DNA of 63,939 nt, filler included, from an uncultured Myxococcia bacterium (lineage in GTDB: Bacteria; CAZTWC01), in NCBI GenBank assembly GCA_964617105.1. It is 3 parts of 3 records of this genome, joined end to end, with 100 filler letters (N's around TTAATTAATTAA, not from the genome) between each part and the next. Parts side by side here need not be neighbours in the genome. Positions count along the whole stretch, not along the records: positions 22,340 to 44,087 come from CAZTWC010000029.1; 2 more parts are not named here. One strand, given 5' to 3'. The notes under the pieces are model-generated. The model was not told the DNA's origin. It did not search any database and saw nothing but the letters and a program-made list of their open reading frames with translations. The position numbers were made by a program, and so were the translations under genes. How positions within the stretch are numbered: position 1 is the stretch's first letter; every line of letters starts with the position of its first letter. This document shows, piece after piece, positions 26,101 through 42,459 of this stretch.

Positions 26101-26270
26101 AGGAGGGTGAATATACATTGACTATTCCCGGGAGATATATCAAGGATTATCAACTGTATATAACCTTTGAAATTCCTGACTCCACCATACCGATTCTACA
26201 CGGAACCAGCGCAGATATGAGAGATCTGGGAGTTGCCTTTAGAACTCTGGTGATTTCTCCAACTATTTAG
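23139..26270 (+). CDS. Membrane-anchored alkaline-phosphatase-superfamily (LtaS/EptA-like, 'sulfatase-like') transferase with three C-terminal repeated beta domains
   Basis: About five N-terminal TM helices; IILIFDS, YPYT (candidate Thr nucleophile, no CxPxR), HLNGPHPP, AADHG; three 'G(W/F)xxP(E/D)xxFTW' repeats. Confidence 0.8.
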   Translation: MIFRFFYKERTLTAIGASALLASTILVFGALQLYLTNINEFTFALSEIIFFPIIIFFIVVVSLSSVIALMGDKTAQRVSSLVFALGVLFWLQGNFILWDYGFLDGKTIEWQKNIHLGIIDTIIWLAVIASSLAFSAFLSRHCKKISVMLILIQTISLLFTASSIDINEKPSYKKFSIDDSHKYQFSSKKNIIILIFDSYTSDIFSEIISESPSYKDIFKGFTYFPNALGGYPYTNASVPLILTGQYYDNSIPIQEFQKQAFKSQSLPKLLTKQGYRVDIFPCNPKMIYYHQDHMSNIVKRKVNLNEVAYLFDIALFRYSPHFIKKLIYNDQHWFLKRFDFNNKFNRKNLPKIDDGYSKYRDLRFIEKIEKTLQVTLDRPSFKYYHLNGPHPPLLLNEKLEIEQLPNNRLGIKRQAKGMLELSRRFFRQLKAKKIFDDSMIIIAADHGFSVGHTLNLKVLPDSLKTLTSKTPDKGAKVYAIPLILIKPFNSKEDFQISKAPVTLGDIPQTIFSQLGLKVDTPGESMFAIKETAKRKRKFYTYIQNRNFWRYKYLPDMTEYSVDGFSWLESSWSKTGIKLTGQKKPKSKPKPIDRSLSSSELVLTFHDRGNARPYLRSGWSYPEKNFTWTNSNEAQIIFPLKKKSNNLLIKASIIPNLARGKIARQRVSIYANGKKVGQWKVASGGIYQALIPQKYLNDSQLDLSFKLPDATTPIVHHNSADLRKLGIAVISLKLKEIGDHAPLIANSKLQNTMATPLEPSSNQMIKFGANNQGRQYLGKGWSKPEKSFTWSNSKEATMLIPFTGQPKTLILTTLLTPYILKGKIDQQRVTVLANGKKIANWEVSSTGAYYAVVPPDFFNNRPQMELVFQLPDAVIPATLGTSKDQRNLALCLQGLKIKEMDINRAQQILKFGIKGNSIPYQIKGFHPPDQNFTWTANKKASLLFPITGDSKDLIMKASLFPYVVPKKLDRQKVIVNINGQKITEWDVIQEGEYTLTIPGRYIKDYQLYITFEIPDSTIPILHGTSADMRDLGVAFRTLVISPTI

Positions 26271-26311: not shown

Positions 26312-26857
26312 TCAAGGGAACCTGTCCTTTAACTCTATCAGATGATCGATAACCAAATCCGCCCTGGTATTCTTATAATCGGTGATTTTATTCCCTTTTA
26401 ATAAAATGTTGGTTTTTACTCCAGCATTTATGCCGGCTTCAATATCAGACTCTTTATCACCAATATTTAAGGATTTAGTCAAATCGAGATCAAAGGTGCG
26501 CTGAGCATTGAGAAAATTTTGCGCCTTTGGCTTACGGCACTCACATTTAATTCGATATTGCTCTTCAACTGCTGCCTGGGGATGGTGAGGGCAAAAATAG
26601 ACCTTTGAGATGGTTATCCCCATCTTTTTAAACTCGGCCAACATCCAGTTGGTTAACCTGTGATAGTCATCCAGGCTGTAGTACCCTCTGCCAATACCGG
26701 ATTGGTTGGTGATAATAAAAATTAAATACCTCTGCTTCTGAAAAAAGCGGCATATCTGGCCAATACCGTCCATAAATTCAAAGTCTTCTATTTTGTAGAG
26801 ATAGTTGATTTCCCGGTTGACCACTCCGTCTCTATCTAAAAAAAGCGCTTTGTTCAT
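26312..26857 (-). CDS. gmhB: D-glycero-D-manno-heptose 1,7-bisphosphate phosphatase
   Basis: FLDRDGV, TNQSGIGRG, CPHHP...CECRKP, GDKESD. Confidence 0.93.
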   Translation of the reverse strand: MNKALFLDRDGVVNREINYLYKIEDFEFMDGIGQICRFFQKQRYLIFIITNQSGIGRGYYSLDDYHRLTNWMLAEFKKMGITISKVYFCPHHPQAAVEEQYRIKCECRKPKAQNFLNAQRTFDLDLTKSLNIGDKESDIEAGINAGVKTNILLKGNKITDYKNTRADLVIDHLIELKDRFP

Positions 26858-27564
26858 CCTGGCTGACCCTGTAATAATTCCCTGTGGTTCTGGGCTATTT
26901 GATAATCCTGGGGGATCCCGATATCAATAAAAAAACCATTCCTTATATAACCAAAAAACTGGTAGGCTTTGACCTTTTTTTCAAAAAAATCAGTTTCTAA
27001 AGAAAATTTATCGGGAAATTGCTCTCTGCTCTCCAAAATATCTCTTTGGGTCACATAGATTCCGCCATTGATATCACCTTGCTGATAAATCCCTTTTTCT
27101 TGAAAGCCAATGATTTTACGGTCTTTATTGGTGAGCACTTTGCCGTACCGATCAAAATTCTGCATAGGTTTCAAGGCCAGAGTCATATCAGCCTTTTTAG
27201 ACAGGTGAAATTCCAGCAACTCCTTTAAATTAACATCAAAGAAAGTGTCGCCGTTGATGATAAAGAGATTTTCTTGCCGGGCATGTCCCAGGGCCAATTT
27301 AACCGCCCCGCCGGTGCCCAGAGGCTCGGCTTCCACAGAATAGGTTATGGGAACAGTTTTATAGATGTCCCCATATCGTTGAATAAAGGCCTGGTGGCCA
27401 TAGCCTATCGCAAAGATTAGCCTGGATACGCCCTGGCTCAGAAGGTAATCGAGAATATAGTCTAAAAAGGTTCTGGAGCCTATGGGGGCTAAGGGTTTTG
27501 GCGTATTGGGCAGCACATTTTTTAGCCTGGTGCCCAATCCTCCGGCCAGGATAATCGCTTCCAC
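26854..27564 (-). CDS. hddC: D-glycero-alpha-D-manno-heptose 1-phosphate guanylyltransferase
   Basis: LAGGLGTRL, PKPLAP, EPLGTGGA, NGDT, FIDIGIPQDY; between hddA and gmhB. Confidence 0.85.
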   Translation of the reverse strand: MEAIILAGGLGTRLKNVLPNTPKPLAPIGSRTFLDYILDYLLSQGVSRLIFAIGYGHQAFIQRYGDIYKTVPITYSVEAEPLGTGGAVKLALGHARQENLFIINGDTFFDVNLKELLEFHLSKKADMTLALKPMQNFDRYGKVLTNKDRKIIGFQEKGIYQQGDINGGIYVTQRDILESREQFPDKFSLETDFFEKKVKAYQFFGYIRNGFFIDIGIPQDYQIAQNHRELLQGQPG

Positions 27565-27626
27565 TTATACTCCTTCACATAACATTTATAATTATTTTCT
27601 ATTATTGTTTCCGAATGGACACTGGT

Positions 27627-28667
27627 TTAACTCTGAGAACCTATCTGCCAACTTTTTACCCCGTTTTTTACAAAATGGAAGTTAAATATCATTCCCCCTT
27701 CCAACTCACTTAGTTTTCGCCGCAATTTTATTTTGTTTACCGGATCGGTTATGAGTATCATAAATCCGCCGCCGCCGGCACCGGAGATCTTGCCGGCATA
27801 GGCGCCTGCCTCCATGGCCTTTTCATAGATCTCATCCAGCCAGGGATTGGTTATCTGTTTGGCCAATTTCTTTTTGGCCAGCCAGGAACTGTTTAAGGTT
27901 TGGGCAAATAGAGGGATATCTCCTTTTAGAATCGCCTCTTTCATCACCAGGGCATCCGCTTTAATCGCATGCATGGCATTAAGGGCTGTTTCCTTATTAT
28001 CCTGAGTATTTTTTATCTGCTCTTTGATAATATTGGCCGATTGACGGGAGGTGCCGGTGTGGAAAAGCAGGATAGAACTTTCCAACTCATCTAAAACATA
28101 GGTTTTTATCCTTAAGGGATTAACAATAACCCGGTCTTGGGCAAAAAATTCCATAAAGTTAAAGCCGCCAAAAGTAGCGGCATACTGATCCTGTTTACCG
28201 CCGCTAAACTCCAAATCCACTCTCTCAATCTGATAGGCCAACTGAGCAATATCGTAATCGCCCAAAGGGAGTTTCAACCACTCCTTAAAGGCCGCTAAAA
28301 TTACCACTTCCATGGTTGATGAGGTGCCCAGTCCACTGCCTGCGGGTGCATCGGCATAAGTTGTCATCTTAAAAGAGAGGGGATTACCCTGATTAAAATC
28401 CTGTATAATGCGGTTATATGCGCCTTTGTGCAAATCAAAATTGCCATCAATCTCTAAAACGGATTTAGTCTCGCACTCTAAATATTCATCTCTATCAGTG
28501 GTGACAAAAATGATCTTGTTGTTGTCCAGCGGTTCAATAGTGCAGTAAGCGTAAAGATCTATAGCCGCGTTAAGGACATAACCACCGTAAAGATCAGAAT
28601 AGGGGGCCACATCGGTGCCGCCTCCAGCCAACCCCAGCCTTAGCGGTGCTTTTGCACGAAAAATCAT
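27627..28667 (-). CDS. hddA: D-glycero-alpha-D-manno-heptose 7-phosphate kinase (GHMP family)
   Basis: [43 protein letters not shown]. Confidence 0.92.
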
Positions 28668-28722: not shown

Positions 28723-31700
28723 TTACCTCAAATCCATATCTGCCGATAGTTTGTCTGCCACATTCCGGGGAGAAAAATATTTGGCAATATATTTTGATGC
28801 CATGGAGGAAAAATTTTGTAACTTCTCCTGGTTATTGTATAAATCAACAATCGCCCCGGCAAAATCCTCCTTCTTATCGGCAATTTTCAGGTAATCTTCA
28901 ATATTTTCCAGTCCTTCCGCCCCAATGGAAGTAGTAATCAGCGGTATCCGGTTATGCAGCGCTTCCACTACTTTCCCTTTAACTCCGGCGCCATAAAGCA
29001 GCGGCACTACCGCTATTTTACATTGGGCATAATACTGGTCAAGAGTGTCATTATCCACATATCCAGTAACAATTACATTCTCTGATGCCAGAGCCTGAAC
29101 CTCTTCGGTGGGGTGAGAGCCGATTATATATATATTTATTTTCGGCAACTCTTTTACAATGGCCGGAAAAACTTCTTTGACAAACCAGAGTATCCCATTC
29201 CCATTGGGTTTATGTTTAAACCCGCCTACAAACATAATATCTTTTCGTTGACTGAAATCTATTGGATTATCATTTGATCCGGTATTATCAAAGATATAGG
29301 CTGGTATGGCTTTTACATTGGCTTTGGGCAAATCTTGTTTGATTAAATCCACCTCGATTTGCGATGGATAGTAGATTACATCTGCCTGAGAAAAGATCCT
29401 GAACTCAATCTCTTTCCAAATCTCGTATTGATTTAAATTCTGCTCATTTTTGTATAACTCATATTCCCGCTTCTCCCTTAGATAATGCAAGTCATGGCCA
29501 TAGTAGATTATTTTGGCCCGGGTGTTCTGCTTAATAAAATCGATATATTTAATCGAGATATGGGGGCGGTTTAGAAAGACATAGTCTAGATATTTGCTGT
29601 GGTCAGATATCCACTTTTGCCAATTGCTGGCGTACCAGTCTCCATACAGTACCTCTATACCAAGTTGCTGCAACGCTGTGGTATAGGGTTCATGCCTGAA
29701 AAAATTATCACCAATAAATTTGATATTAAAACCCTGGTCGATAAAAAACTTGATATATTGATAGGTGGTTTGCGAGCCAGCATCCTGGTCAAAATGGGGG
29801 ACATAGTGGTCGATAAATAGCAGAGTTTTCTTGTTTTGGCTACGATCCCGGGCCCAAAATACATTTTGCCCGCTCTCAAATTGTCCCTTTTCTAACTGCT
29901 TTTGCCACTTTTCAAAAAACTTCTGATTGTTTATTTGTTGATACTTTTTAATCCCGCTATTAATATCAGTTCCACTGGTAATACCCTCGTGATGGGTCAC
30001 CACCGATTTGGGCTGAAAAACCACCTTGTAACCGCGAGCCCGCACCTCAAAAGCCAAATCTGAATCCTCGCAGTAAGCGGGGGCATATCTCTGATCGAAT
30101 CCACCTATCTCCTCCCATAGACTTTTACGGATCATTATGCTGGCGCCAGAAATGTAGTCCACCTCTTTAACATAATTATATTCCGGCTTTTCCGGATCAT
30201 CGGTCCGGCCAAAATTCCAGCCAGAGGCATCCTGCCAAATAACCCCGCCGCTCTCCTGCAAAGTACCATTGGAATAAACCAGTTTTGAGCCTACCATTCC
30301 TACTGTTTCATCGTTTTCTGTGATATCCAGCAATGAATCAAGCCAACCCTCGTTTACTTCGGTGTCATTGTTTAAAAAGTGGAGATATTCTCCATGGGCC
30401 TGGCTGGCAGCCTGATTACAGTTTTTCAGAAATCCCAGGTTGGTTTTGTTGCTGATTAGTTGAACATTTTTAAAGGATTTTAACATCTCCTGGGTTTGAT
30501 CAGTGGAATTATCATTGGCCACAATCACTTCATAGGAGATGTTGAGAGTATTTTTCAGGATGGAAACCAAACAAAAATAGGTGTAGTTCCATTGATTATA
30601 AACCGGGATTATAATAGATACTTTGGGCCGGCTAAAGTAGGGAAACTCCAACAAATAGTTGGGCTCAGCGTTATCAGTGGCAACCTCTGGCTCTCCCCCT
30701 TTTGGCGACCTGGTTACTTGAGATGCCAGGTTATTTACCCGGCTAAATAGTTGTTGCAAAATTTTCCTTCTTCTTGAACCCAAAGGCAGGTTTTTATCCC
30801 TGATGCTGTAGTAAAACAACAGGGCTCTCCAGCCATGACAGTGAAGAATCTGCTCCAATCTTTCTCTGGTATCTTTTAGGTCAACCTCCAGTTGATCAAC
30901 ATGCCGAATTTTATTTTCGAGCCGGGCTTTTAAAGATATTATGCGGGTATCTTTTTCCTCAATCGCCTTGGTCATCTTCTCAATATCGACATTATCATGT
31001 TTTACCTGGCTATCAAGTTGCGTCACCAGGTTTTCTTTACTTTTAAGGCTGGACTGCGAAGAGAGGATCTCCTGCTCCTGCTCTTTGCACAAGTTGGCAT
31101 AATCTTCCAGTTGTTTATGGTTTTTTTGAACTTCCTTTTCATAAAAGATAATCTGCTGGGCCTTTTGCTCCACCTGTTTTATTAAAGTTTGGTTCTGGTC
31201 CTGGGCGGTTTGCAACTGCTCCCTGAGATAGGCATCTTGCTTCTCCTTCTCCTCCAGCAAATATTGATTATGATCCTGGGCCTTTTGCAATTGTTCAATA
31301 AGATGGGTCAACTGTGTATCCCGCTTTTCCATCTGTCCGATTAGAGTTTGACTCTGGTCATGGGCGGTTTGTAGTTGCTCCATAGATTTGTCAATCTGGT
31401 TTTTCTGATGTTTAGATTGAAGAGTGAGCCCCTCTATTTGGCCATTTCTTTGGGATAGTTGCTGGCTAAGATTATCCACCTGCCCCTGTTTTATTCTGGT
31501 TTCCTCAAACATCCTTTCCGACAGGTCAACTAAAATAGAGGTATTGACGGAGGTGATTTTTTTATCAGAACAAAGAGCGATAGCATACATAATCTCTTTA
31601 TCTTCTGTTGAAGGTCTAAATCCCTCTGCAGTAAAACGTAACTTATATTCGGTCCATTCTTTATTGCTCTCCTCTGTATTCCAAATATAGGAAATCGGAT

Positions 31701-32244
31701 AGAGTCTTTGTCCCACAACCTGGGTATATTTAAACGATTGCCCCAAAAACTCCTTAAACTCCTCTAAATAAAATTCATTTTCATGAAATTCATTTTTAAA
31801 TTTGGGAAGATCACTGTAAACCAATTTATTAGGAGTTGAGGCGATCAGAAGACCGCCCGGCTTTAATATCTGTTTTATTGAAGTTAAAAATTTATTTTGC
31901 TCTTCAGCAGAAATATGCTCAATGGTTTCAAAGGATACTACTACATCGAATACAGGCGCCAAAGTTTGGCTGATATCCTCAGTGGATCCGACCTGAAACT
32001 GGAGGTTATCCGGTAAATATTTCTCCTTTGCTTCGGTTATTGATTCCTGATCTATATCTATACCGATTACCTGACTGGCATTTTTTTGGGCCAGCAGATA
32101 ACTGCCATAACCTTCGCCACAGGCAATATCCAGCACCTTTTTGTTTTTTACAAATTCACCGGCATATAAATAACGATGCCAGTGTTCATAGCTAATCTCC
32201 GGATTTTCAATATTGGGTAGATATCGCTCGCCTGTAAATTCCAT
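28723..32244 (-). CDS. Multidomain glycan polymerase/terminator: SAM methyltransferase + coiled coil + GT2 + GT4-like glycosyltransferase
   Basis: FTGER...EHWHRY, LDIACGEGYG; Q/E/K-rich coiled coil; VSIIIPVYN...LNNDT...YCEDSD; C-terminal GAGVKGK. Confidence 0.9.
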   Translation of the reverse strand: MEFTGERYLPNIENPEISYEHWHRYLYAGEFVKNKKVLDIACGEGYGSYLLAQKNASQVIGIDIDQESITEAKEKYLPDNLQFQVGSTEDISQTLAPVFDVVVSFETIEHISAEEQNKFLTSIKQILKPGGLLIASTPNKLVYSDLPKFKNEFHENEFYLEEFKEFLGQSFKYTQVVGQRLYPISYIWNTEESNKEWTEYKLRFTAEGFRPSTEDKEIMYAIALCSDKKITSVNTSILVDLSERMFEETRIKQGQVDNLSQQLSQRNGQIEGLTLQSKHQKNQIDKSMEQLQTAHDQSQTLIGQMEKRDTQLTHLIEQLQKAQDHNQYLLEEKEKQDAYLREQLQTAQDQNQTLIKQVEQKAQQIIFYEKEVQKNHKQLEDYANLCKEQEQEILSSQSSLKSKENLVTQLDSQVKHDNVDIEKMTKAIEEKDTRIISLKARLENKIRHVDQLEVDLKDTRERLEQILHCHGWRALLFYYSIRDKNLPLGSRRRKILQQLFSRVNNLASQVTRSPKGGEPEVATDNAEPNYLLEFPYFSRPKVSIIIPVYNQWNYTYFCLVSILKNTLNISYEVIVANDNSTDQTQEMLKSFKNVQLISNKTNLGFLKNCNQAASQAHGEYLHFLNNDTEVNEGWLDSLLDITENDETVGMVGSKLVYSNGTLQESGGVIWQDASGWNFGRTDDPEKPEYNYVKEVDYISGASIMIRKSLWEEIGGFDQRYAPAYCEDSDLAFEVRARGYKVVFQPKSVVTHHEGITSGTDINSGIKKYQQINNQKFFEKWQKQLEKGQFESGQNVFWARDRSQNKKTLLFIDHYVPHFDQDAGSQTTYQYIKFFIDQGFNIKFIGDNFFRHEPYTTALQQLGIEVLYGDWYASNWQKWISDHSKYLDYVFLNRPHISIKYIDFIKQNTRAKIIYYGHDLHYLREKREYELYKNEQNLNQYEIWKEIEFRIFSQADVIYYPSQIEVDLIKQDLPKANVKAIPAYIFDNTGSNDNPIDFSQRKDIMFVGGFKHKPNGNGILWFVKEVFPAIVKELPKINIYIIGSHPTEEVQALASENVIVTGYVDNDTLDQYYAQCKIAVVPLLYGAGVKGKVVEALHNRIPLITTSIGAEGLENIEDYLKIADKKEDFAGAIVDLYNNQEKLQNFSSMASKYIAKYFSPRNVADKLSADMDLR

Positions 32245-32979
32245 CTAAACCACCTCTTGATAAGAGTTGATCACCTGCTCTGGGTCACCATCTTCTCTGA
32301 TTTTACCTCTATCCAGCCAAACCACCCGGCTGCAAATGGTTTTTATAGCCTCCAGGTCATGGGAAACCAAAACCGTTGTTCCCCCGCCATTGATAATTTT
32401 CAATAGGGCATTTCTGGACTTCTTTTGAAAAGAGGCGTCACCCACTGCCAGCACTTCATCGATGAGCATAATTTCAGGATCTATGTGGATTGCCACAGAG
32501 AAAGCCAGACGCATATACATACCAGCAGAGTAAGTTCTGGCCGGCATCCAGATAAATTCGCCCAACTCAGCAAATTCGACAATATCATCTACCCGGTCCA
32601 TCACTTCCGCCTTGGTAAGACCCAGCAAAACGCCGTTTATCATAATATTTTCTATGCCGGTCAAATCGGGATGAAAACCTGAACCAAGTTGTAACAGAGG
32701 GGTTTTTTTACCAAAAACCTGCAACTTTCCTTTAGTTGGAAAAATGGTGCCCAGCATCAAGGCCAGCAAAGTGCTCTTACCAGCACCATTGTTACCGATA
32801 ATACCCAGACATTCCCCTTTGACAACCTTCAAATCTATCCCTTTTAAGGCCCAAAACACTTTTTTGCTGCTAACAAAATATTTGCGGGCATTAACCAGAA
32901 ATTCTTTAAAACCGGGCTTGTCCCGCTTCATGGGAAAATTTTTCCAAATATTTTCTAATACAATTGCATCTTCACTCAT
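32245..32979 (-). CDS. wzt: Polysaccharide ABC exporter ATP-binding subunit (no C-terminal carbohydrate-binding module)
   Basis: GNNGAGKST, YSAGMYMRLAF, IDEVLAVGD; only 244 aa. Confidence 0.93.
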   Translation of the reverse strand: MSEDAIVLENIWKNFPMKRDKPGFKEFLVNARKYFVSSKKVFWALKGIDLKVVKGECLGIIGNNGAGKSTLLALMLGTIFPTKGKLQVFGKKTPLLQLGSGFHPDLTGIENIMINGVLLGLTKAEVMDRVDDIVEFAELGEFIWMPARTYSAGMYMRLAFSVAIHIDPEIMLIDEVLAVGDASFQKKSRNALLKIINGGGTTVLVSHDLEAIKTICSRVVWLDRGKIREDGDPEQVINSYQEVV

Positions 32980-33773
32980 AACACTTCATCTAATCGTTTG
33001 CCTAATAACTTAAAAATTGCCACTCCTATCAATAGAAAAATTATAGCAGTAAAGGCGGAGGTATAAATATATGACCAGGCGATAGTATTGTTGAGAAACA
33101 ATTCCCGCCAGGCGCCCATTAAATAGGTGAGGGGGTTAAATAATAAATAAATTCTATACTCCTCTGGTATTGCCTTAAGAGGATAAATAATCGGTGTCAA
33201 CCAGAAAAGAAAATTGATACAGACCCCGATAATATATTCCATATCCCGAAAAAATGCATTTATCATAGAGAGTGAAAGAGAGATCCCCAGAGTAACCGTA
33301 AACTGTATAATAAGCAGTAAAGGAACACCCAGCAACCAATTTATGTGAACAGATTTATCATAGAAATAAACCAGCCCTATCAATATTGGGAAAGAAAAGA
33401 GCAAGTTGACCAATTGGCCGAGAATAGTGGCGAGAACCAAAAAATGCCTGGGAAACATCACCCTTTTGATTAAATTGATATCAGCAGTCAAGGTTCCGGA
33501 TGATAATAGTACTGAGGCTGAAAACCAGTTCCAGGGAAAAAGAGCGGCCAACAGAAAAAGGGTATAGTTTTTCATCTGAAAGCGCATAAAGATATTAAAG
33601 GCAATATAGAGGACAATTGCGGTTAAAATAGGATTCAACAAAGACCACAGTATACCTAAATAGGTGCGCTTATATTTTAAGGTGATATCTTTTTTTACCA
33701 AAAGGACCAAAAGATCCAGTTGTTGGTGAAGTTTGGCTTTAGATGATTGAGAGATAAACATATTATTCACCAA
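32976..33773 (-). CDS. wzm: Polysaccharide ABC exporter permease
   Basis: KYKRTYLGILWSLLNP, PIIYP, NPL; six TM segments. Confidence 0.93.
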   Translation of the reverse strand: MVNNMFISQSSKAKLHQQLDLLVLLVKKDITLKYKRTYLGILWSLLNPILTAIVLYIAFNIFMRFQMKNYTLFLLAALFPWNWFSASVLLSSGTLTADINLIKRVMFPRHFLVLATILGQLVNLLFSFPILIGLVYFYDKSVHINWLLGVPLLLIIQFTVTLGISLSLSMINAFFRDMEYIIGVCINFLFWLTPIIYPLKAIPEEYRIYLLFNPLTYLMGAWRELFLNNTIAWSYIYTSAFTAIIFLLIGVAIFKLLGKRLDEVL

Positions 33774-34900
33774 TTGGCGATATTGATAATTTCCTCAGCC
33801 CCCACCCGGGCTGATTGGTTGAAACAAAATATATATTGGCGGCGTAACTCAGTGATATGCTGCTGATACTCTTTCTGTCCGGCAATCAGTTTGTCGATTT
33901 CTTTTGGAATCGAATCAAGTTCCCGGGGTGGAACCACCGTACCTATTTGCTCTCGAATCGATAATTCAAACGGCTCTATCCCCAGATCCTGAAAGTTTTG
34001 ATTGCGTATCTTACGGGGCACATCCAAAAAGAGAACCGGCCGCTCAGTCCCCAGGGCATATTCCAGGGCTACACCGGAACAATCACAGATCATCACATCA
34101 GCTTTCAGTAAGGAGTCGTTAGTGGCAATCGAGCGCTCCAGGGTAAAATCCGGGTGTTGATTGAACTTGCCGGCCAAATGGTCCAGCATCTGGGGAGTCC
34201 GTTTTACTGTTTCAGGATGAGTCCGGACAATAACATTATAATTGGCGGACAAGAGCAGTTCCACCAATTTCTCGCCGCAGGATTCTAGAATATTCATCTT
34301 TCCCCAGGAGGGGGCGATTAATACTATTGGCTTGGACGAAGAAGCCGGATTATTTTGCTTAAACTGGGTGGATTGGCGATGAATTTTCTCTAACCGGTAA
34401 TAACCCCCTTTTACCAATCTTTTTTCCGGCAGTTTATGTCGCTTTTCCCAGGCACGGATCTCCTCCACCTGGAATGGTCCTACACACAAGATAGTGTCGT
34501 AATAATCAAAGGCTCCTGGCAAATACATCATGTGAGTGCTAACCATGGAGTGAAAGATATAAAGATAATGGACCTGGTTGATGGAACGTTTTAAATGATA
34601 CTGATGCAAATCGGAGAGGGTCATTACAAATACTTTGCAATTGATAAAAATCATCAAAAAGGGGAGCAATTTATTTAGGTAAAATGTCTTTATGGCCGGT
34701 GTCCGGTTTTCCCGGATGGGGTCGTTAAAATCAGAAGTGATATAGCAGATGGTTTTTTGTCTGGAGATTAGTTCCTCAATAATACCGGCATAGTTGGGAT
34801 AATAACCACCATGTTCAGAGTAAAAAACTATCTCTTTATCTTTTTTTCCGGTTCGCCAAAAAAAACGAAAAAAGTCTTTAAGTTCCAATAAAAATTTCAT
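33767..34900 (-). CDS. CDP-glycerol glycerophosphotransferase (TagB/TagF) family protein, probable CMP-phosphonate transferase
   Basis: IFHS, GYYRL, LIAPSWG, RTHP, ICDCSGVALEY motifs of the TagF family; directly after the phosphonate genes. Confidence 0.8.
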   Translation of the reverse strand: MKFLLELKDFFRFFWRTGKKDKEIVFYSEHGGYYPNYAGIIEELISRQKTICYITSDFNDPIRENRTPAIKTFYLNKLLPFLMIFINCKVFVMTLSDLHQYHLKRSINQVHYLYIFHSMVSTHMMYLPGAFDYYDTILCVGPFQVEEIRAWEKRHKLPEKRLVKGGYYRLEKIHRQSTQFKQNNPASSSKPIVLIAPSWGKMNILESCGEKLVELLLSANYNVIVRTHPETVKRTPQMLDHLAGKFNQHPDFTLERSIATNDSLLKADVMICDCSGVALEYALGTERPVLFLDVPRKIRNQNFQDLGIEPFELSIREQIGTVVPPRELDSIPKEIDKLIAGQKEYQQHITELRRQYIFCFNQSARVGAEEIINIANW

Positions 34901-34987
34901 AACGCCAATGCTCTAAGATTCGTCAAACTGTCATCCTTTTTGTGCAATCCGAACTATGTGGAGAAAAAAAATATACCACTGATTGCT

Positions 34988-36136
34988 CTATGGATAGAAA
35001 CTTTTTAACCACGCTGTTATCTGTGGTTTCTCCACCCGGCGGGGATTATTTTTAACTCTTTGTAGATTTATCTTGCCGGTAATCAATTCAAGGTCATTTT
35101 TTTTAATAGATAATTTCGCCGGGTTAGACTCCAGATTGATAGTTTCCATTAAAAGTAATATTTTTTCATGGGCTTCTTGGGCGCTGGCAGCCCCCAGCAG
35201 TTGAAATAACTGTTGCATCTGCTGTTTAACAAAATTGACGCCCTGTTTATGCTGCACATCATTTTCCGTGACCCCGGCATTGTAAAGAATAAACAGAGGT
35301 ATGGTAAGAGCGACCGCATGGCCGTGAGGAATATTGAAATAGGAAGTAAAAGCATAGGATAGGGCATGAGGCGCGGTGGTTTTGGTAATATTAATGGCCC
35401 GGCCGGCCAGGTTGCTGGCCAGAAGCATCTTGTCCCGGCAAGATTTATCCTGGTCCCTGACCGCCCCGACAATATTGGCAATAGCCAATTGAATAGCCTG
35501 GCGGCTATAGTTCTCTGACTCGGCTGTTGCATTTACCGACCAAAATGATTCAATCCCCTGGCATAATGCATCCATACCAGTGCAGGAGGTGAGGTAAGGG
35601 GGAAGACTATCGGTGAGAAGCGGATCGAGAATGGCATAATCTGGCAACAATGAGGGGTGGGCGAAAGAGAATTTCTCTTTCTTAATATATACCACACAAA
35701 AATGGGTGGATTCACTGCCGGTTCCAGCGGTGGTAGGTATCATTATGGTGGGCACCCGCCCGGGCAATGGTGTTTTTTTACCGGTAATATACTTTTCAAT
35801 TTCACCTTTGCTGCCCAATTCTTGACCAGCCAGCAGAGCAATGGCCTTGGCATTGTCCAAAGCACTTCCCCCGCCAAATCCAATTACCAAATCGCAATGG
35901 TTTTGAATAAACCGGGCAACCCCTTTTTCGATATCATTAATTTTTGGATTGATCTCAAAATCGATAAAAGAGGTATGAGGATAATGGGTCAGGAGTTCAC
36001 CAAATAATCTCTCGGCACCGGAGAGGGTGAATGCCTGTTCGTCTTTGACCCAAAAAATATTTCCAGGCTGATATTTTTCTAAAATGACTGCCAGTTCCTG
36101 ATATTTTCCCCGGCCTTCAATTATTGTTTGTGTCAT
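34988..36136 (-). CDS. Phosphonoacetaldehyde reductase (group III Fe-containing alcohol dehydrogenase)
   Basis: GGGSALDNAK, IPTTAGTGSE, GMDALCQGIESFWS, AINITKTTAPHALSY, PHGHAV; follows the ppd gene. Confidence 0.88.
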   Translation of the reverse strand: MTQTIIEGRGKYQELAVILEKYQPGNIFWVKDEQAFTLSGAERLFGELLTHYPHTSFIDFEINPKINDIEKGVARFIQNHCDLVIGFGGGSALDNAKAIALLAGQELGSKGEIEKYITGKKTPLPGRVPTIMIPTTAGTGSESTHFCVVYIKKEKFSFAHPSLLPDYAILDPLLTDSLPPYLTSCTGMDALCQGIESFWSVNATAESENYSRQAIQLAIANIVGAVRDQDKSCRDKMLLASNLAGRAINITKTTAPHALSYAFTSYFNIPHGHAVALTIPLFILYNAGVTENDVQHKQGVNFVKQQMQQLFQLLGAASAQEAHEKILLLMETINLESNPAKLSIKKNDLELITGKINLQRVKNNPRRVEKPQITAWLKSFYP

Positions 36137-36181
36137 TTATGAATAACCCCGCAAAGCAGTAACCCCCCTTTTTCAAAGCGG

Positions 36182-37321
36182 TCATTTACTCAAGTTGTTC
36201 TTTAAGAAGGTCATATAATCCTGTTTGTTTTGCAAAGGTGTTCTGGTAGGCCGGCCTAAATCTTTTCTGGCCCCTTTTTTAAGTTTGATTTCCAGCAAGG
36301 CGGGGCCGGAGCATGCTTGCAAACGGCGCACCATCTCCGGCAACTCGGAATCGTTTTGTGCCTGTAATACCTCTCTGTAACCACAAGCCTTAGCAATGGT
36401 GGACAGATCAATATTAAAACCAACTGTAGGCTGTCCTCCCACCGAGTCATGAGAGCCGTTATTTAAAATTATATGTTTATAATTGGCAAGTGGCTTGCTG
36501 GCTATTATAGCCATGGCTCCCATATGCATAATAGCGGCGCCATCTCCATCCAGGCAATACACCTGCCGGTCCGGCTTTTGCAAAGCGATTCCCATAGCGA
36601 TTTGGGATGAGTGTCCCATAGAACCTACAGTTAAAAAATCCTTGGCATGACCCTGCTGCAATTGTTCCCGGTATTCGAACAACTCCCGAGAGGCTTTTCC
36701 GGTGGTGGATACCACGATATCTTCTGCTCCCAAACTATTGACAATGATCTTAATGGCCTCTTCCCTGGAAAGTTGAAAAGGCGATTCGGCTTTAGAGGTC
36801 AATTGATACTTGCTGAAAATACCACGGCGCGCCACCAGGGCATAGGGTTGGTGTTTTTCAGTTAAATATTCCACTGCCTTTTTAACTATTTCGCCAACCT
36901 GGTCAAACTCCTCGGGCAGCACTTGATATGGGATCTCCAGAGTATCCAGCATTTTCAAAGTTATCCGGCCCTGCATGAGATGCTGGGGTTCATCTTTTTT
37001 ACCAGGCTCACCTCGCCACCCCACCAACATTAACAGGGGCAAACTATATACATCTTTACTGGCTAGTGAAATCAACGGATTGGCAGCATTTCCCAGTCCC
37101 GAGTTTTGCAGATAAACCAGAGCGCTACTCCCAGTGGCCAAATGATAGCCGGCTGCTATACCAACAGCGTTGCCTTCGTTGGCGGCTATAACGTGCCGTC
37201 TATCCGGCAGGTTATCCAGCAGATAAGCGCAAAAATCTTTTAGGGTGGAATCGGGAACTCCGGTATAAAATTTAATACCTGCTTCAGAGAGCAAATTATA
37301 AAAAGATTGACAATCTAGCAT
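36182..37321 (-). CDS. aepY: Phosphonopyruvate decarboxylase
   Basis: TGVPDS, ANEGNA, YLQNSGLGN, DEPQH, GSMGH, DGDGA, HDSVGGQPT. Confidence 0.95.
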   Translation of the reverse strand: MLDCQSFYNLLSEAGIKFYTGVPDSTLKDFCAYLLDNLPDRRHVIAANEGNAVGIAAGYHLATGSSALVYLQNSGLGNAANPLISLASKDVYSLPLLMLVGWRGEPGKKDEPQHLMQGRITLKMLDTLEIPYQVLPEEFDQVGEIVKKAVEYLTEKHQPYALVARRGIFSKYQLTSKAESPFQLSREEAIKIIVNSLGAEDIVVSTTGKASRELFEYREQLQQGHAKDFLTVGSMGHSSQIAMGIALQKPDRQVYCLDGDGAAIMHMGAMAIIASKPLANYKHIILNNGSHDSVGGQPTVGFNIDLSTIAKACGYREVLQAQNDSELPEMVRRLQACSGPALLEIKLKKGARKDLGRPTRTPLQNKQDYMTFLKNNLSK

Positions 37322-37335
37322 TTTTATCCTTTCTG

Positions 37336-38634
37336 TCAGTCACTTCCCGGAATCAACCGAATTATATCTTTGATGGAACTACAGTATTGCCCGCACTCCA
37401 AACTTCTTTGGTTTTCCAATATTGATTCGGCGGTTTTTACCATAGCCGGATAAGCACTGCGCAAAAGATGATTGGCATATATAACCACATTGACACCAGC
37501 GTCTATTAACTCCTCTTCGGTTATATGGTTGTAAGTGGAGGGCACCACCACCAGGGGAACCCGCCGGGAAAACTGGTTAAACTGGTTACAAAACTCGAGA
37601 ATCTCAGTAGGTTCTTTTTGTTTGCTGTGGATCATGATTCCATCAGCACCGGATTGGATATAGGCGTTGGCCCTTTCCAGGGCATCGTCCATCCCTTTTT
37701 CCATGATCAAACTTTCGATTCTGGCAATGATCATAAAATGATCGGTCACCCGGGCATTTTTACCGACAACAATTTTATGGCAAAAGTTATCAATGGAATC
37801 TTGAGTCTGCTCAACCTCGGTGCCGAACAGAGAATTTTTTTTCAGACCGATTTTGTCTTCTATAATGGCGGCGGAAACCCCTAAGCGTTCCAAAGTTTTC
37901 ACTTTAAAAGCAAAATGCTCTGGAATCCCGCCGGTATCAGCGTCAAATATGATTGGTTTGGTGGTTACTTCCATAATATCGTTGATGGTATTGACCCGGG
38001 AAGTCATGTCAACGCACTCGATATCCGGTTTACCTTTGGCCACTGAATCGGTTAAACTGCTAAGCCACATACAATCAAACTCCCGGGTGATGCGGCCATC
38101 AACGGTTTTAACATTTTCTGCAATCAATCCGGTCAAGCCGTTGTGGGCTTCCAAAGCCCTGATCAGAGGCCTGGCGGACAACAGTCTTTTTAACCGTTTT
38201 AATCGGATATCGGGAGTGGTGCCGATCTCCTTGATCTTGGCATTCAGATAAGAGGATGAAATCCCCTGGGTATACGGGATCTCCTCAAGTTCTCCTCCCC
38301 ATTCTTTCAAGGTATCGATTACTCTTTGTCTAACCTGCTTTTGCACTCCTTCTTGCCAGTCGTCACCGTGAACCACCAGGTCAGGTTTTATTTTTAGCAA
38401 GTTAGGCACATAATCAAGGGTCTCCTGGGCAATTACTGTTTTTACTCCCTTTATATTCTCTACCACCATTTTACGATGTTTATAGTCCAGATATGGAAGC
38501 CGTTTATAACTGGCAATAGCTTTATCTGTGAGCAATCCAACTGTGACATCACCAAACTTGGCTGCATGTTGGATTATGTTCAAATGTCCATGATGGATGA
38601 TATCAGCACTCATTGCTACATATACTTTTTTCAT
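37336..38634 (-). CDS. aepX: Phosphoenolpyruvate mutase with N-terminal cytidylyltransferase domain
   Basis: DIIHHGH (HxGH) and HGDDW in the CT domain; [10 protein letters not shown] matches the PEP mutase EDKxxxxxNS motif. Confidence 0.96.
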
Positions 38635-38707
38635 TATCTTTCAAGCCTCTTTATTTTGTTGTTATTCGCCAGAATGATTATTTCTTATAACATCCGCAAC
38701 CGATTTT

Positions 38708-39604
38708 TCAAGCAGTTTTTCGCTTTCTTTGGATCAACCATTGCTCAAAAATCTGGCAGGTGTTGACCGTAGTCCAGTAAATTAACAGGCCAGACGGAAA
38801 AGCATAAAAGAGCAACACCATTACCAAAGGCATAATATAGATGGCCTTACTACCAGCTCCCCCTTTGCCCTTTTTGGGGGTGCCACTTTGGTTCATCATG
38901 TAACTCTGGATCAACTGTGCTGCCAGCATAAAAAAAGGGAGCAGATTGAAATGGCTGCCAATAATAGGTAAATCCAACCCCAGAGGAAAAAGATTTTCTG
39001 GGGTGGACAAATCGTTGATCCAGAGAAATTTCACTTCTTTAATCGCCATAGATTGACTCAGGATCTGGTAAAGAGCGATAAAAATAGGGAGTTGTACAAC
39101 CAGCCACAAACAACCCTTAAAAGAGGAGAAAGGGCTGAAGTTATGCTGTTTGTAAAGTTTCATGGTTTCTACATACCGTTTGTCGCCGTCCTGGTATTGT
39201 TTATTGATTTCATCTATAAAAGGTTTTAATTTAGCCTGCTGTTGTTTAAATAGTTTTTGTTGTCTTAAGCCGTACCGAGTAACAGGATAGGTTAAAAAGC
39301 GCAACAAAATGGCCAAAAAAATAATTGCCAGTCCCCAATTGCCCAATAAGAAGTAAATCCAATTTAGAAGATGCTTCAATGCCAGACACAGGGGGCGCAG
39401 CCAAAACCAGTAATTGTCCTCTGATTCAGCCTGGTTTGTTAGAGGTTGTACCTGTTCAACTGGCTGTTTGACCGGCTGAATCGTTTGGGTAATAAGTGAC
39501 AAATGGAGTAGGTTATCCCCGTTAATTTGAGCCTGGGCCGCCCATAGGGGAAAAATTAAAATAGCGGCGAATAAAAGCAGCAAAAGTTTTAGTTTGAACA
39601 TCAT
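38708..39604 (-). CDS. Short YidC/Oxa1-family membrane protein insertase paralog
   Basis: GNWGLAIIFLAILLR, GCLWLVVQLPIFIALY, FLWINDLS, FPSGLLIYW; 298 aa, lacks the large periplasmic P1 domain. Confidence 0.9.
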   Translation of the reverse strand: MMFKLKLLLLLFAAILIFPLWAAQAQINGDNLLHLSLITQTIQPVKQPVEQVQPLTNQAESEDNYWFWLRPLCLALKHLLNWIYFLLGNWGLAIIFLAILLRFLTYPVTRYGLRQQKLFKQQQAKLKPFIDEINKQYQDGDKRYVETMKLYKQHNFSPFSSFKGCLWLVVQLPIFIALYQILSQSMAIKEVKFLWINDLSTPENLFPLGLDLPIIGSHFNLLPFFMLAAQLIQSYMMNQSGTPKKGKGGAGSKAIYIMPLVMVLLFYAFPSGLLIYWTTVNTCQIFEQWLIQRKRKTA

Positions 39605-39669
39605 GATCTTGAAAAGAATGATAAGGATTAGGGATATCTTTTGTTGACAGGTTAGTTAACAATCAATTA

Positions 39670-39921
39670 TTATTTGTTTTTTAACAGGGGCGGGTCTGAA
39701 GATTCCTGCGGAATGGGTTTTCCCAAAAGTTTCATGAAAAAGAATTTTATCTTTCTCCAAAACAGTTTAACGGCCATGGCAATTCCCACTACAGCCGCCA
39801 AAACCGCCTGTAAAAGCATGGAGCCAGTTCCTGGATCGATGTAAGCGTGGGCCTTTAATGGAAAAGAGATGGTAACAACAACCATCAATAAGAATAGCAA
39901 AACTGTATTTAAAATATTCAT
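39670..39921 (-). CDS. Small membrane protein (83 aa): signal peptide + YIDPGTGS + TM helix + basic tail
   Basis: GGAG RBS before ATG 39921; AHA|Y signal-peptidase site; hydrophobic MLLQAVLAAVVGIAMAV then KLFWRKIK. Confidence 0.8.
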   Translation of the reverse strand: MNILNTVLLFLLMVVVTISFPLKAHAYIDPGTGSMLLQAVLAAVVGIAMAVKLFWRKIKFFFMKLLGKPIPQESSDPPLLKNK

Positions 39922-40008
39922 TTTATTACTCCAAAATAAGTCTTGGGTTAATTTTTGTAACAAAAGAAATATTTTATCATAAAATCAATATTATACCAAA
40001 CAAATAAA

Positions 40009-41037
40009 TTGAGGAAACCTGCGCCGGTGATAAGTATAATTATAGTCAGTTACAACAGCGGACAACATATTGGCAAGCTGCTGAATACTCTGTTGAGTCC
40101 TTCTTTCAGATACGGCGGTAAAAATATTGAAATTATCGTAGTTGACAATAATTCCACTGATAACAGCGTAAAAACTATCGAATCTTTTAGCAATCCACAT
40201 CTGCGGCTGGTAAAATCTCGGGAAAACCTGGGATTTGCCGGAGGGTGTAACCTGGGATACCAATATGCCCGGGGAGAGTTTATCGCCTTGTTAAATCCAG
40301 ATACCTCGCCCGCTCCTGCCTGGTTAAGTAACTTAATCAAATATGTTGACCTTAAAAAATATCAAAAGGTGGGAATTTTTGCATCTAAAATAATCAATGT
40401 GAACGCTGAAGAGCGGGTGATAGACAGCGCAGCTGACGGCTGTACAACTTTTGCCAAGGGGTTTAAACGGGGAGAGGGAGAGGAGATCTCAGCCTATAAC
40501 CGCTCTGAATACGTGTTTGGCGCCTGCGGGGCCGGCATGTTAATCAGGCGGCAACTCTTAGAAGATATTGGCTTTTTCGATGACTACATGTTCTTAATTC
40601 ACGAAGATACTGAATTTTGCCTGCGGGCCCAGATTAAGGGCTGGAAAGTATTTTATGTGGCAGAGGCGATTTTATATCATCAGGTAAGGAGTTCTATTGG
40701 CAACTTAAGCGATATGGCGGTTTATTACTCTTTACGAAATGCCGATTATACCTGGTTGAAACTGCTTCCCGCCAGGTTAATGGCTCGATTTATTCACGAA
40801 AAACTGCTCTTTGAATTGGGAAATATTCTATTTTTCCTGGTCAGGCATAAAAAAATAATTCCTTTTCTAAAAGCCAAAATTCACCTGCTCTATGACCTAC
40901 CTAAAATATTAAAGCGCCGCCGGGACTTTAAAAAACAGGTGGGAAAAATCGATGACGCCTATATGGCTACCATCTTGACCTCTGTCTTTGACCGAAAATT
41001 GCTGATGCAAAAGGTGACCAAACTTTTTAAAGGTTAA
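40009..41037 (+). CDS. Glycosyltransferase family 2 (WbbL/rhamnosyltransferase-like)
   Basis: ISIIIVSYN, VDNNSTD, NLGFAGGCN, LLNPD, HEDTE. Confidence 0.9.
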   Translation: MRKPAPVISIIIVSYNSGQHIGKLLNTLLSPSFRYGGKNIEIIVVDNNSTDNSVKTIESFSNPHLRLVKSRENLGFAGGCNLGYQYARGEFIALLNPDTSPAPAWLSNLIKYVDLKKYQKVGIFASKIINVNAEERVIDSAADGCTTFAKGFKRGEGEEISAYNRSEYVFGACGAGMLIRRQLLEDIGFFDDYMFLIHEDTEFCLRAQIKGWKVFYVAEAILYHQVRSSIGNLSDMAVYYSLRNADYTWLKLLPARLMARFIHEKLLFELGNILFFLVRHKKIIPFLKAKIHLLYDLPKILKRRRDFKKQVGKIDDAYMATILTSVFDRKLLMQKVTKLFKG

Positions 41038-41077: not shown

Positions 41078-42454
41078 TTATACAGTATAAAACATCTCTA
41101 CATCGTCAAGAACTTTTTTGTGTACCTGTTTTAATTCTTCTGGATTGTAATTGATTTTCGAGTTTGCTAAATATCTTGACATTTTTGCGTAATCAAAATC
41201 AGCGGGTGATATTCTGGAAAGGAAATTAGCAGTTTGTAAAACATAAAATTCTCCGGGTTTTTTTATTGGAGGTTCAGTTGCGTGATGCCTTAATACATGA
41301 AAAATAATTTTTTCTGAAAACTCCCAATTTAATAGAACTTCTGCGCCAATTTTTGTGTGCAGTAATTCCACTAATTCATCAAAATCAATTCCCGATTTTA
41401 CTGCATGCAAAAGTAGATCTTTCTTCCTAAATATTTGCTGAATAATAATCAATTTGCCAATATCATGTAATAGCCCGACATAATAGATATCCGCAGCATC
41501 GATAACTTCTTTGAATATTTTTCTGGAAAAATGAGTGGCCAATGAAGACGCAAGAGTAGCACAGATAAGAGAATGTTTATACAAGTCGTCCATCCATATT
41601 TTTAGGCTCTTATTTGTAGTTTTAAAAATATCTTTAATCCCAAGGGTAAAGACTATTTTTATTGTCTCCTTTAAACCAATACGAACTATTGCCTTTTTTA
41701 TATCAACTATTTCCCTGGATGATTTATAATATACACTGTTAGCAATTCTGGTAATTTTTGCCGCCAGAGTAAAGTTACGATTTATGACATTGGCTAATTT
41801 GGTAATATTAGGGTCTTTATCTCTTATAATATTTTGAACATGCTGTATTTCGGTGGGGATATTAAATAGTTTAAACTCCTTGTTATTTAATGTAATAAGA
41901 AGAGACTGAAATATCTTGTCAAAAATGCTCATTACAAACTTGTTTTGTTCTGCTTTCTTATGTTTTGTTTGGCAAAACCGGCAACAAATTGATTGCTTCA
42001 AAAGTATTTTTCGGCAGAACGGGCAAATTTTAAATATAGAGATATCTTGCGTATCTATTTCACCTCGGGCAGATTTAATAAAATAATAGAATAATAATTT
42101 TAATTTCTCGACTGAAAAAGGCTTTAGAATTGTGCAATCAGCGCCCATTTTTAAGGCCAATTCTTCTTTGTCTCTTTCATTATAGTTGACAGAAAAAAAG
42201 ATTGGAAGTGAGAAATAAAGAGATTTTTGCCGAATATTTTTTATAATTTCAAAACAATTATCAATATTTGATGATATAATTAAAAAACAGGTTGAAATGT
42301 TTGGCTCATTATGGATCGATTTCAAGATAGATGTTAAATTTTCATTAAAATTATTACCATCAGTAAATAGTGATAAATACGCCATATTTTTAAATTGAAG
42401 TTCAATAGCTTTACCAATAACATCACTGGCGTCGAGCAGAATAATTCTATACAT
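41078..42454 (-). CDS. Degenerate receiver-like domain + zinc ribbon + HDOD domain protein
   Basis: GADCTILKPF, CPFC...CRFC, ANSVYY, GLLHDIGK, RHH. Confidence 0.8.
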   Translation of the reverse strand: MYRIILLDASDVIGKAIELQFKNMAYLSLFTDGNNFNENLTSILKSIHNEPNISTCFLIISSNIDNCFEIIKNIRQKSLYFSLPIFFSVNYNERDKEELALKMGADCTILKPFSVEKLKLLFYYFIKSARGEIDTQDISIFKICPFCRKILLKQSICCRFCQTKHKKAEQNKFVMSIFDKIFQSLLITLNNKEFKLFNIPTEIQHVQNIIRDKDPNITKLANVINRNFTLAAKITRIANSVYYKSSREIVDIKKAIVRIGLKETIKIVFTLGIKDIFKTTNKSLKIWMDDLYKHSLICATLASSLATHFSRKIFKEVIDAADIYYVGLLHDIGKLIIIQQIFRKKDLLLHAVKSGIDFDELVELLHTKIGAEVLLNWEFSEKIIFHVLRHHATEPPIKKPGEFYVLQTANFLSRISPADFDYAKMSRYLANSKINYNPEELKQVHKKVLDDVEMFYTV

Positions 42455-42459
42455 AATAA

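Follow-up and report, generated by a model that had tools for sequence, protein, structure and literature searches.

A small YIDPGTGS protein as a probable membrane-anchor module for TagF-like transferases in a phosphonate cluster of a Myxococcia bacterium

The closest described systems to the gene cluster analysed in this work are the NoeA/NoeB cassettes (Lani_1193-Lani_1194-Lani_1195; nodL-noeA-noeB in Sinorhizobium), the wall teichoic acid pathway (TagD/TagF/TagGH) and, with respect to the phosphonate enzymes, the fosfomycin pathway. In the accessible part of the study by Krysinska et al. (PMC9758233) the relatives of NoeA, which combine a kinase-like domain with a methyltransferase, are compared with WbdD, and NoeA-like genes are reported to have two conserved neighbours, found in 65% and 38% of 816 neighbourhoods, to which that part of the text assigns no function. 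Fom1 of fosfomycin biosynthesis is described in the accessible text of PMC6697681 as a cytidylyltransferase-phosphoenolpyruvate (PEP) mutase making CMP-HEP, i.e. 2-hydroxyethylphosphonate (HEP) activated with cytidine monophosphate (CMP). The stretch of DNA analysed here, called the window below, comprises 63,939 nucleotides (nt) from an uncultured Myxococcia bacterium (GCA_964617105.1) and contains a phosphonate operon headed by the genes of an 83-amino-acid (aa) microprotein with the motif YIDPGTGS and of a YidC paralog. We propose, with a probability of about 0.62, that the microprotein is a free-standing, detachable membrane-anchor module for cytoplasmic phospho-group transferases, which is oriented N-out/C-in and carries an invariant eight-residue periplasmic cap.

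It is useful to set the window beside these systems. With the NoeA/NoeB cassette it shares the microprotein family (to which Lani_1193 may belong) and a sulfatase-fold enzyme, but a phosphonate pathway and a TagF-like enzyme replace the NoeA-like protein, and a YidC copy is added. No NoeA-like gene was found in the 64-kb window, which is thus not a NoeA/NoeB cassette in the strict sense. With the wall teichoic acid pathway the window has in common the TagF fold and family, ABC-2 exporter genes directly behind the transferase gene and, in all likelihood, a cytidine-activated donor with a free hydroxyl. It differs from that pathway in its donor, which would be a phosphonate (probably CMP-HEP), in its likely diderm host, in the separate anchor microprotein, and in the size of the TagF-like enzyme, which is that of the primase rather than of the polymerase. 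The M13 procoat and Pf3 coat proteins are small, with a basic tail on the cytoplasmic side and a translocated segment that is very short, features which the microprotein appears to share; they have, however, no sequence relation to it, and most members of the microprotein family occur without a dedicated YidC. In the literature we found no report with the motif YIDPGTGS (the small conserved neighbour of NoeA may be named in the supplementary tables of PMC9758233) and none linking YidC to PEP mutase (PepM); the phosphonate survey Rice 2019 mentions neither YidC nor sulfatase, and that of Li & Horsman 2022 mentions sulfatase once and YidC never. The NoeA-type neighbourhood is already in print, whereas the phosphonate/YidC version and the TagF-like fusions described below were not found in print.

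The microprotein gene (39673..39921, minus strand) encodes 83 aa when read from its ATG; the mechanical open reading frame, starting at a TTG at 39963, has 97 aa. By eye, the protein consists of a hydrophobic leader ending in AHA, the YIDPGTGS cap, a single hydrophobic, transmembrane helix and a basic tail. It matched neither Pfam nor NCBIfam, and in the protein atlas it falls only in clusters labelled 'hypothetical protein'. A profile built from eight relatives matched 11,582 representative proteins at E<=1e-3, of which 2,375 reached 1e-10; among the 150 representatives listed, 149 were 62-148 aa long and one had 161 aa. A family signature, made up of A-x-A, Y-[IL]-D-P-G-[TS]-G-S and a Gln 11 residues after the Tyr, was present in 150 of 155 short representatives, and in these 150 the individual positions were kept as follows: A(-3) 140, A(-1) 145, Y 150, D 150, P 150, the second G of the motif 150, S 148 and Q(+11) 149. 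On these counts the signature is far above chance. The C-terminal tails are short and variable across relatives. In a tree of the microproteins, which rests on few columns and is poorly resolved, TagF-type and NoeA-type members were not separated (8 label changes among 121 labelled rows), which points to a role independent of the head group.

The genomic company of the microprotein was recorded at 162 loci (80 each from species genomes and from metagenomes, and 2 on plasmids), whose open reading frames were scored with the window proteins and one NoeA-like protein. A NoeA-like kinase/methyltransferase gene was found at 129 of them; it is almost always the next gene downstream, and its start codon often overlaps the stop codon of the microprotein gene. 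A homologue of the window TagF-like gene was found at 17 loci (18 of 163 in a larger count), ten of which have it directly downstream of the microprotein in the place of NoeA; a YidC gene was present at 7 loci, not counting the window, and PepM at 6. With a more sensitive model a sulfatase-fold gene was detected at 92 of 163 loci, and at 55 of the 62 loci with at least 4 kb on both flanks (NoeA-type 45/52, TagF-type 8/8, other 2/2), which leaves 7 of the 52 well-covered NoeA-type loci with no sulfatase-fold gene nearby. The background of this model was 35 matches in 18.4 Mb, or about 1 per 0.5 Mb. The links of the microprotein to TagF-like genes, to sulfatase-fold genes and, in a subset of loci, to YidC, all of which had been predicted in an initial annotation of this DNA, were thus borne out by the family. 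The same annotation saw the microprotein as a carrier for phosphonate; the 129 loci where it is paired with a NoeA-like protein show that it is not specific to phosphonate.

A less biased search took the TagF-like protein as query in 401 Pseudomonadota and 401 Myxococcota genomes. The protein was rare, with 2 matches in each sample, and the only new genomes that it yielded, G153 and G496, had the microprotein and a sulfatase-fold gene in the same cluster. PepM above the cut-off was found at 20 places in 18 of the 401 Pseudomonadota genomes; at the 19 places examined, with about 10 kb on each side, there was no microprotein, TagF-like, YidC or sulfatase-fold gene, which ties the microprotein to the TagF-like/sulfatase-fold module rather than to phosphonate synthesis in general. 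In G153 the microprotein profile had three matches, two of them strong and each of these two with a sulfatase-fold gene nearby, which indicates that several modules can coexist in one genome.

Judged by gene content, the module occurs in three flavours: a NoeA type, a phosphonate type and a phosphoramidate-like type. In the first, the microprotein family is encoded directly upstream of noeA(-noeB) on Sinorhizobium/Ensifer plasmids. The second comprises the window and the loci L064/G001, L056/G002, L160, L102 and L194/G496; the short contigs L127 and L158 hold the microprotein and PepM only. In the third (L174:9322-16730 and L048:1418-7172) the microprotein is followed by a 1014-aa enzyme of the PEP-utilising type (NF004508, 830 bits), an amidotransferase-like protein, a nucleoside triphosphate (NTP) transferase and a TagF-like protein, and L174 also bears a divergent sulfatase-fold gene. 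The best NCBIfam name for the amidotransferase-like protein was gamma-glutamyl-CDP-amidate hydrolase, with a score below the cut-off. This gene set looks like a pathway for a phosphoramidate donor, and we take it to resemble the phosphoramidate route of Campylobacter. A different arrangement was seen in marine metagenomes (L130:1621-10743, also L131, L153 and L157), where genes for a methyltransferase, a B12-binding radical SAM protein and a choline-kinase-like protein are followed by the microprotein, TagF-like and sulfatase-fold genes, with no PepM within the stretch examined. At L160:9025-14172 genes for an MBOAT acyltransferase, an AlgX-like SGNH protein and a sulfatase-fold protein lie downstream of the microprotein and YidC genes, an arrangement that suggests O-acylation of the same polymer.

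The strongest argument for the anchor role comes from natural fusions. Longer relatives of the microprotein were searched for with the profile (180 matches at E<=1e-3, the best 120 of which were examined), a search that superseded an earlier single-sequence search, in which none of 166 candidates scored. Of the 120 longer relatives listed, 105 have the motif among their first 70 residues and behind it, at a median distance of 44 aa, a domain matching the window TagF-like protein (phmmer E<=1e-5); 2 of the 120 had a NoeA-like fusion partner. A leader of at least 14 aa with an AxA-type site is present in 63 of the 105 fusions, and 27 start with the motif, without a leader. Six fused sequences were inspected directly, and some of the fusions, from Treponema, Spirochaetaceae, Schwartzia and Thermoanaerobaculia, are named CDP-glycerol glycerophosphotransferase family proteins by source databases such as NCBI. 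By the Rosetta-stone argument, the free microprotein and the TagF-like enzyme would work as one unit at the membrane. In the leaderless fusions (P0242 and 26 others) the YIDPGTGS motif lies within the first 14 residues, and it is the short N-tail that would need to be translocated, presumably in a manner resembling the N-tail insertion of Pf3. Five apparent fusions with the microprotein at the C-terminus (P0157, P0159, P0162, P0169 and one more) were set aside as a class: P0157, P0159 and the sulfatase-domain protein P0170, which were inspected, look like read-through gene calls with the microprotein's own start inside.

The TagF-like protein of the window (33767..34900, minus strand), a predicted transferase for donors activated with CMP or cytidine diphosphate (CDP), matched PF04464 (9e-12, 45 bits, cut-off 22.1), and its AlphaFold2 model (pLDDT 91) had as best matches the TagF structures 3l7i/j/k/l/m at E 1e-12, followed by Cps3D (8qoy) and TarL (8va1). 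With PF04464 and the two-domain TagF-type fold it has the profile match and the architecture of the TagF/CDP-glycerol glycerophosphotransferase family. Among 13 relatives H117 and H228 were invariant, H123 and H144 nearly so; these are candidates for the catalytic histidines known from TagF. The idea that this enzyme polymerises HEP into a teichoic-acid-like polyphosphonate was not adopted, because close relatives (33-34% identity) sit in likely phosphoramidate-donor loci and phosphoramidate cannot polymerise.

The genes named in the initial annotation, i.e. those of the microprotein, YidC, CT-PepM (a cytidylyltransferase-PEP mutase fusion), Ppd, Fe-ADH and the TagF-like protein on the minus strand and of the sulfatase-fold enzyme on the plus strand, were all found where it had placed them. 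It was correct in describing 33767-39921 as a co-oriented run, but the run does not end at 33767, it continues through permease, ATPase, glycosyltransferase and sugar-nucleotide genes. The TagF-like gene overlaps by 7 nt the gene of an ABC-2 permease of the Wzm/TagG type (32976..33773, minus strand; PF01061), which in turn overlaps by 4 nt the gene of an ABC transporter ATPase of the Wzt/TagH type (32245..32979, minus strand; PF00005; 244 aa, without an extra C-terminal domain), and the gene of a 1173-aa glycosyltransferase (28723..32244, minus strand) begins at the base right after the ATPase gene. The TagF-like gene is thus translationally coupled to the Wzm, Wzt and glycosyltransferase genes. 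The 1173-aa protein has Pfam domains of a methyltransferase, a GT2 and a GT1 enzyme and a Q/E/K-rich middle part with coiled-coil character by eye, a make-up which, as we take it, recalls the chain-terminating 'ruler' enzymes of ABC-dependent O-antigen pathways.

The sulfatase-fold gene (23139..26270, plus strand) converges on the end of the operon and is therefore a border gene of the same cluster. It encodes a 1043-aa membrane enzyme of the alkaline-phosphatase superfamily, with PF00884 (3.7e-22) over residues 189-515 and no NCBIfam match. N-terminal helices are predicted at residues 2-36, 45-68, 72-94, 114-133 and 135-162, and by the positive-inside rule, applied by eye, the catalytic domain would face outward. 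The nucleophile column has Thr in most of 19 rows; H390, D445 and G447 are invariant, D197 and H385 nearly so. A sequence search against solved structures gave one weak match, 6bia (E 0.007), with whose sulfatase Cys the window Thr aligns in a locally weak stretch (E 38), and Foldseek with the model gave sulfatases, PbgA and LtaS at about 1e-7, not separable from each other. Sulfatase-fold enzymes of other microprotein cassettes were matched at 1e-68 (L025) and 4e-66 (L038). The C-terminal part (window 24900-26270) contains three repeats, each some 130 aa long, in which the pattern GWS.PE..FTW.N recurs; the repeats may be sugar-binding modules, and their sole Pfam match was a weak one to an alpha-1,3-glucanase domain. 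By its architecture the protein fits the EptA/LtaS class. Like EptA, LtaS and PbgA it appears to have five N-terminal helices and an outward sulfatase-fold domain, with Thr where sulfatases have Cys or Ser and with conserved Asp, His and Asp-His; it differs from them by the three extra C-terminal repeats and has 11-18% identity to the solved members. EptA and LtaS take head groups from membrane lipids and use a Thr nucleophile.

Two of the three phosphonate enzymes could be assigned with the NCBI equivalog cut-offs: CT-PepM (37336..38634, minus strand; PF01467 and PF13714; TIGR02320 405 bits, cut-off 320) and the phosphonopyruvate decarboxylase Ppd (36182..37321, minus strand; TIGR03297 507 bits, cut-off 313). 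The third, Fe-ADH (34988..36136, minus strand; PF00465, PF25137), is the presumed phosphonoacetaldehyde reductase which would make HEP, its substrate being suggested by the context. As far as the accessible text of PMC6697681 describes Fom1, that enzyme, like the window CT-PepM, has an N-terminal PF01467 domain fused to PEP mutase; Fom1 works in an antibiotic pathway, whereas CT-PepM is encoded in a surface-glycan cluster and its substrate is assigned by analogy. With this precedent, CMP-HEP, which had also been named as donor in the initial annotation, is the probable product of the pathway in the window.

The gene of the 298-aa YidC paralog (38708..39604, minus strand) follows the microprotein gene after a 65-nt gap. 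The protein has a signal-like N-terminus and the YidC/Oxa1 core (PF02096 at residues 90-293, 1.5e-41, 142.6 bits, cut-off 35; TIGR03592 153.3 bits, cut-off 84.3), and a scan with Pfam and NCBIfam gave no match to YidC_periplas (the P1 domain). The charged residue of the groove helix is Arg in this and in 6 other microprotein-adjacent YidCs, which we take to be the equivalent of the groove Arg of E. coli YidC, and Lys in 5 housekeeping YidCs. Four of five related genomes have two YidC genes. The higher-scoring copy has yidD or rnpA upstream and, where checked (3/5), mnmE or jag downstream, and the lower-scoring copy adjoins the microprotein; in the fifth genome the microprotein-side YidC is at the edge of a contig, and the search did not recover it. 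In a small, unrooted tree of 12 rows the 7 microprotein-adjacent YidCs, the window one included, were split from the 5 housekeeping ones with 100/100 support, and the window gene, sitting between the microprotein and CT-PepM, lacks the housekeeping synteny. The view of the initial annotation that the adjacent YidC is not the housekeeping one thus proved correct: these are second copies, apart from the YidC linked to yidD/rnpA.

A YidC gene was found at 4 of 18 TagF-type loci compared with 3 of 129 NoeA-type loci, i.e. the YidC copy is an optional, phosphonate-leaning accessory. Most of the other paralogs are longer than the window protein (451-609 aa; that of L065 was called at 955 aa and is probably over-extended), and at least one, that of L064, bears the P1 domain, the short form being special to the lineage of the window and L084. 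The YidC of L084 is the nearest relative of the window protein, with 59% identity. The L084 locus (L084:1646-9486), the window's closest relative, has two sulfatase-fold genes and then the microprotein, YidC and TagF-like genes in a row; no PepM was found there between YidC and TagF-like in the 11.5 kb examined. YidC is described, in the accessible parts of PMC11997395 and bioRxiv 10.1101/2023.09.01.555937, both as an insertase and as a lipid scramblase.

Based on these observations the following sequence of events can be proposed. CT-PepM, Ppd and Fe-ADH would make HEP, which would be activated as CMP-HEP. The TagF-like enzyme, which the microprotein would keep at the inner membrane, would move the phosphonyl group to a membrane-bound acceptor, most likely a lipid-linked glycan made by the neighbouring glycosyltransferases, and the product would be exported by Wzm/Wzt. 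The periplasmic sulfatase-fold enzyme, with its Thr nucleophile and its sugar-binding-like repeats, would act on the same product or donor outside the cytoplasm, and the extra YidC would most likely insert the anchor or the polytopic sulfatase-fold enzyme. The last two steps are speculative.

Several observations weigh against the proposed anchor role. The partner enzymes diverge to 13-30% identity, while the cap and the membrane-embedded Gln are nearly invariant; an anchor role alone leaves this invariance unexplained, thus the cap must do more. The binding of the free microprotein to the TagF-like enzyme is a prediction from the fusions; a complex prediction, made with custom alignments and no controls, gave scores of 0.01 and 0.02 compared with a mark of 0.32 and speaks neither way on binding. 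In the window 4.8 kb separate the two genes, and it is YidC which follows the microprotein. Most of the loci were found via the microprotein and are hence ascertained on it; they include duplicate contigs from genomes and metagenomes (at least L008/L096, L014/L105 and L037/L141), and 9 of the 10 loci with a TagF-like gene directly downstream belong to one marine lineage. The gene calls were crude open reading frame calls. For the TagF-like enzyme the acceptor is putative, as is the donor for the sulfatase-fold enzyme, and Fe-ADH scored 172 bits with the phosphonate-specific TIGR03405, far below the cut-off of 424, so its assignment is at the family level and HEP would be its product by inference.

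The invariance of the cap in spite of such divergent partners suggests contact with something constant, for example an active-site region or a phospho head group. It is possible, though unlikely, that the cap is the working part of the microprotein. The microprotein would then link the cytoplasmic transferase with the sulfatase-fold enzyme, docking at the active-site region or the membrane domain of the latter, and would present a lipid-linked phospho(n)o donor or help to flip it, with the YidC paralog as scramblase of that lipid. Besides the invariance of the cap and Q(+11), this would account for the frequency of the sulfatase-fold gene at well-covered loci (at G002 it lies directly downstream of the microprotein), it would suit the Thr at the nucleophile position, as in enzymes which take head groups from membrane lipids, and it would make use of the described scramblase activity of YidC. 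It is, however, supported by neither structure nor experiment, the TagF-like enzyme may act on the glycan instead of a lipid, and the well-covered NoeA-type loci lacking a sulfatase-fold gene do not fit it.

A somewhat more doubtful extension is that the microprotein, the cytoplasmic transferase and the sulfatase-fold enzyme form one trans-membrane machine, which puts methyl phosphate, phosphonate or phosphoramidate, according to the donor genes present, on envelope polymers extracytoplasmically: the tethered transferase would charge a lipid, and the cap, with YidC as scramblase where present, would hand this lipid to the sulfatase-fold enzyme.

It is improbable that the genes are mere neighbours, i.e. 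that the TagF-like enzyme modifies a lipid-linked glycan on the cytoplasmic side and the sulfatase-fold enzyme has some separate function, for example the transfer of phosphoethanolamine or glycerophosphate. A glycan decorated in the cytoplasm and exported by an ABC transporter would require none of the additional components, which 19 of the 20 PepM loci in the 401-genome sample indeed lack, but the microprotein, the TagF-like and the sulfatase-fold genes, sometimes with YidC, recur in unrelated lineages with three donor pathways, and the fusions tie the microprotein to the TagF-like enzyme.

Still less probable is the relay put forward in the initial annotation, according to which the TagF-like enzyme esterifies HEP onto the Tyr, Thr or Ser of YIDPGTGS in the cytoplasm, YidC flips the loop and the sulfatase-fold enzyme unloads the phosphonate onto the exported glycan, a protein thus replacing the lipid carrier. 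The gene associations predicted by this scheme do exist, the YidC is a non-housekeeping paralog, the cap shows hardly any variation at its Tyr, Thr/Ser and Ser, the three-gene cassettes have no obvious flippase or lipid-carrier gene, and a tyrosyl phosphoester would, by inference, keep its group-transfer potential. The scheme cannot be reconciled with the fused forms: in the 105 fusions there is one site per enzyme, which after insertion lies across the membrane from the catalytic domain, and this is not compatible with a consumable covalent carrier; the 27 leaderless fusions lack a loop of the procoat kind. Each use of a free peptide would cost the synthesis of 83 aa, YidC accompanies just 7 of the 162 loci and the window, and the 129 NoeA-type loci have a kinase/methyltransferase instead of a TagF-like enzyme. 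The least probable explanation is a regulatory one modelled on MifM, a small membrane protein encoded upstream of a YidC paralog whose translation is tuned by the insertion state of MifM: in the window, L084, L064, L160 and probably L065 the YidC copy comes directly after the microprotein, whose topology would suit a YidC substrate, but the microprotein family occurs at more than 150 loci without YidC and also as the N-terminus of enzymes, and its C-terminal tails are short and variable.

A promoter-like site (TTGGTA-17-TAAAAT with TG; 39971..39999, minus strand) lies about 50 nt upstream of the microprotein start; it is a weak site, a consensus match only, and the promoter/terminator scan as a whole, with 50 sites in the region compared with 35.8 +/- 6.3 in shuffles, was not clearly above the shuffled background. 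The opposite border of the cluster is formed by a divergent GT2 glycosyltransferase gene (40009..41037, plus strand), identified by GT2-type NCBIfam matches which were all below their cut-offs. At the distal end of the operon the genes of a GHMP kinase (PF00288/PF08544), a nucleotidyltransferase (PF00483) and a HAD phosphatase (PF13242) occupy 26312..28667 (minus strand) and probably serve the supply of a sugar nucleotide, perhaps a heptose-like one. Beyond the sulfatase-fold gene there are a FadL-like fragment (22407-23093), a HEAT-repeat gene and a trp operon; because of the FadL-like outer-membrane fragment the host is likely to be diderm. Past the other border, at 41078-43991, an HDOD/HD-domain protein, a DUF2225 protein and a 115-aa protein are encoded, which may be regulatory. 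At 1-7245 and 7893-10595 the window encodes very large proteins that bear thrombospondin type 3 repeats and carboxypeptidase-regulatory-like domains; one of them has an amidohydrolase domain, and none is related to the phosphonate cluster.

Surface phosphonates are a large, poorly understood pool of organic phosphorus, and their attachment after activation is the open step of the field. The cluster described here offers defined parts for this step: a TagF-like enzyme together with its proposed anchor, a phosphotransferase-like enzyme that would face outward, and a dedicated YidC. Since the same parts recur with two other donor pathways, the module looks general, and if the trans-membrane machine considered above were true, it would represent a general, undescribed route for extracytoplasmic phosphonate decoration. 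The separate YidC clade tied to such clusters is a new handle on specialised YidC paralogs. The microprotein family itself, with more than 11,000 representative clusters, is nameless in Pfam and NCBIfam, and thousands of glycan clusters would be better annotated if it were recognised as a detachable enzyme anchor.

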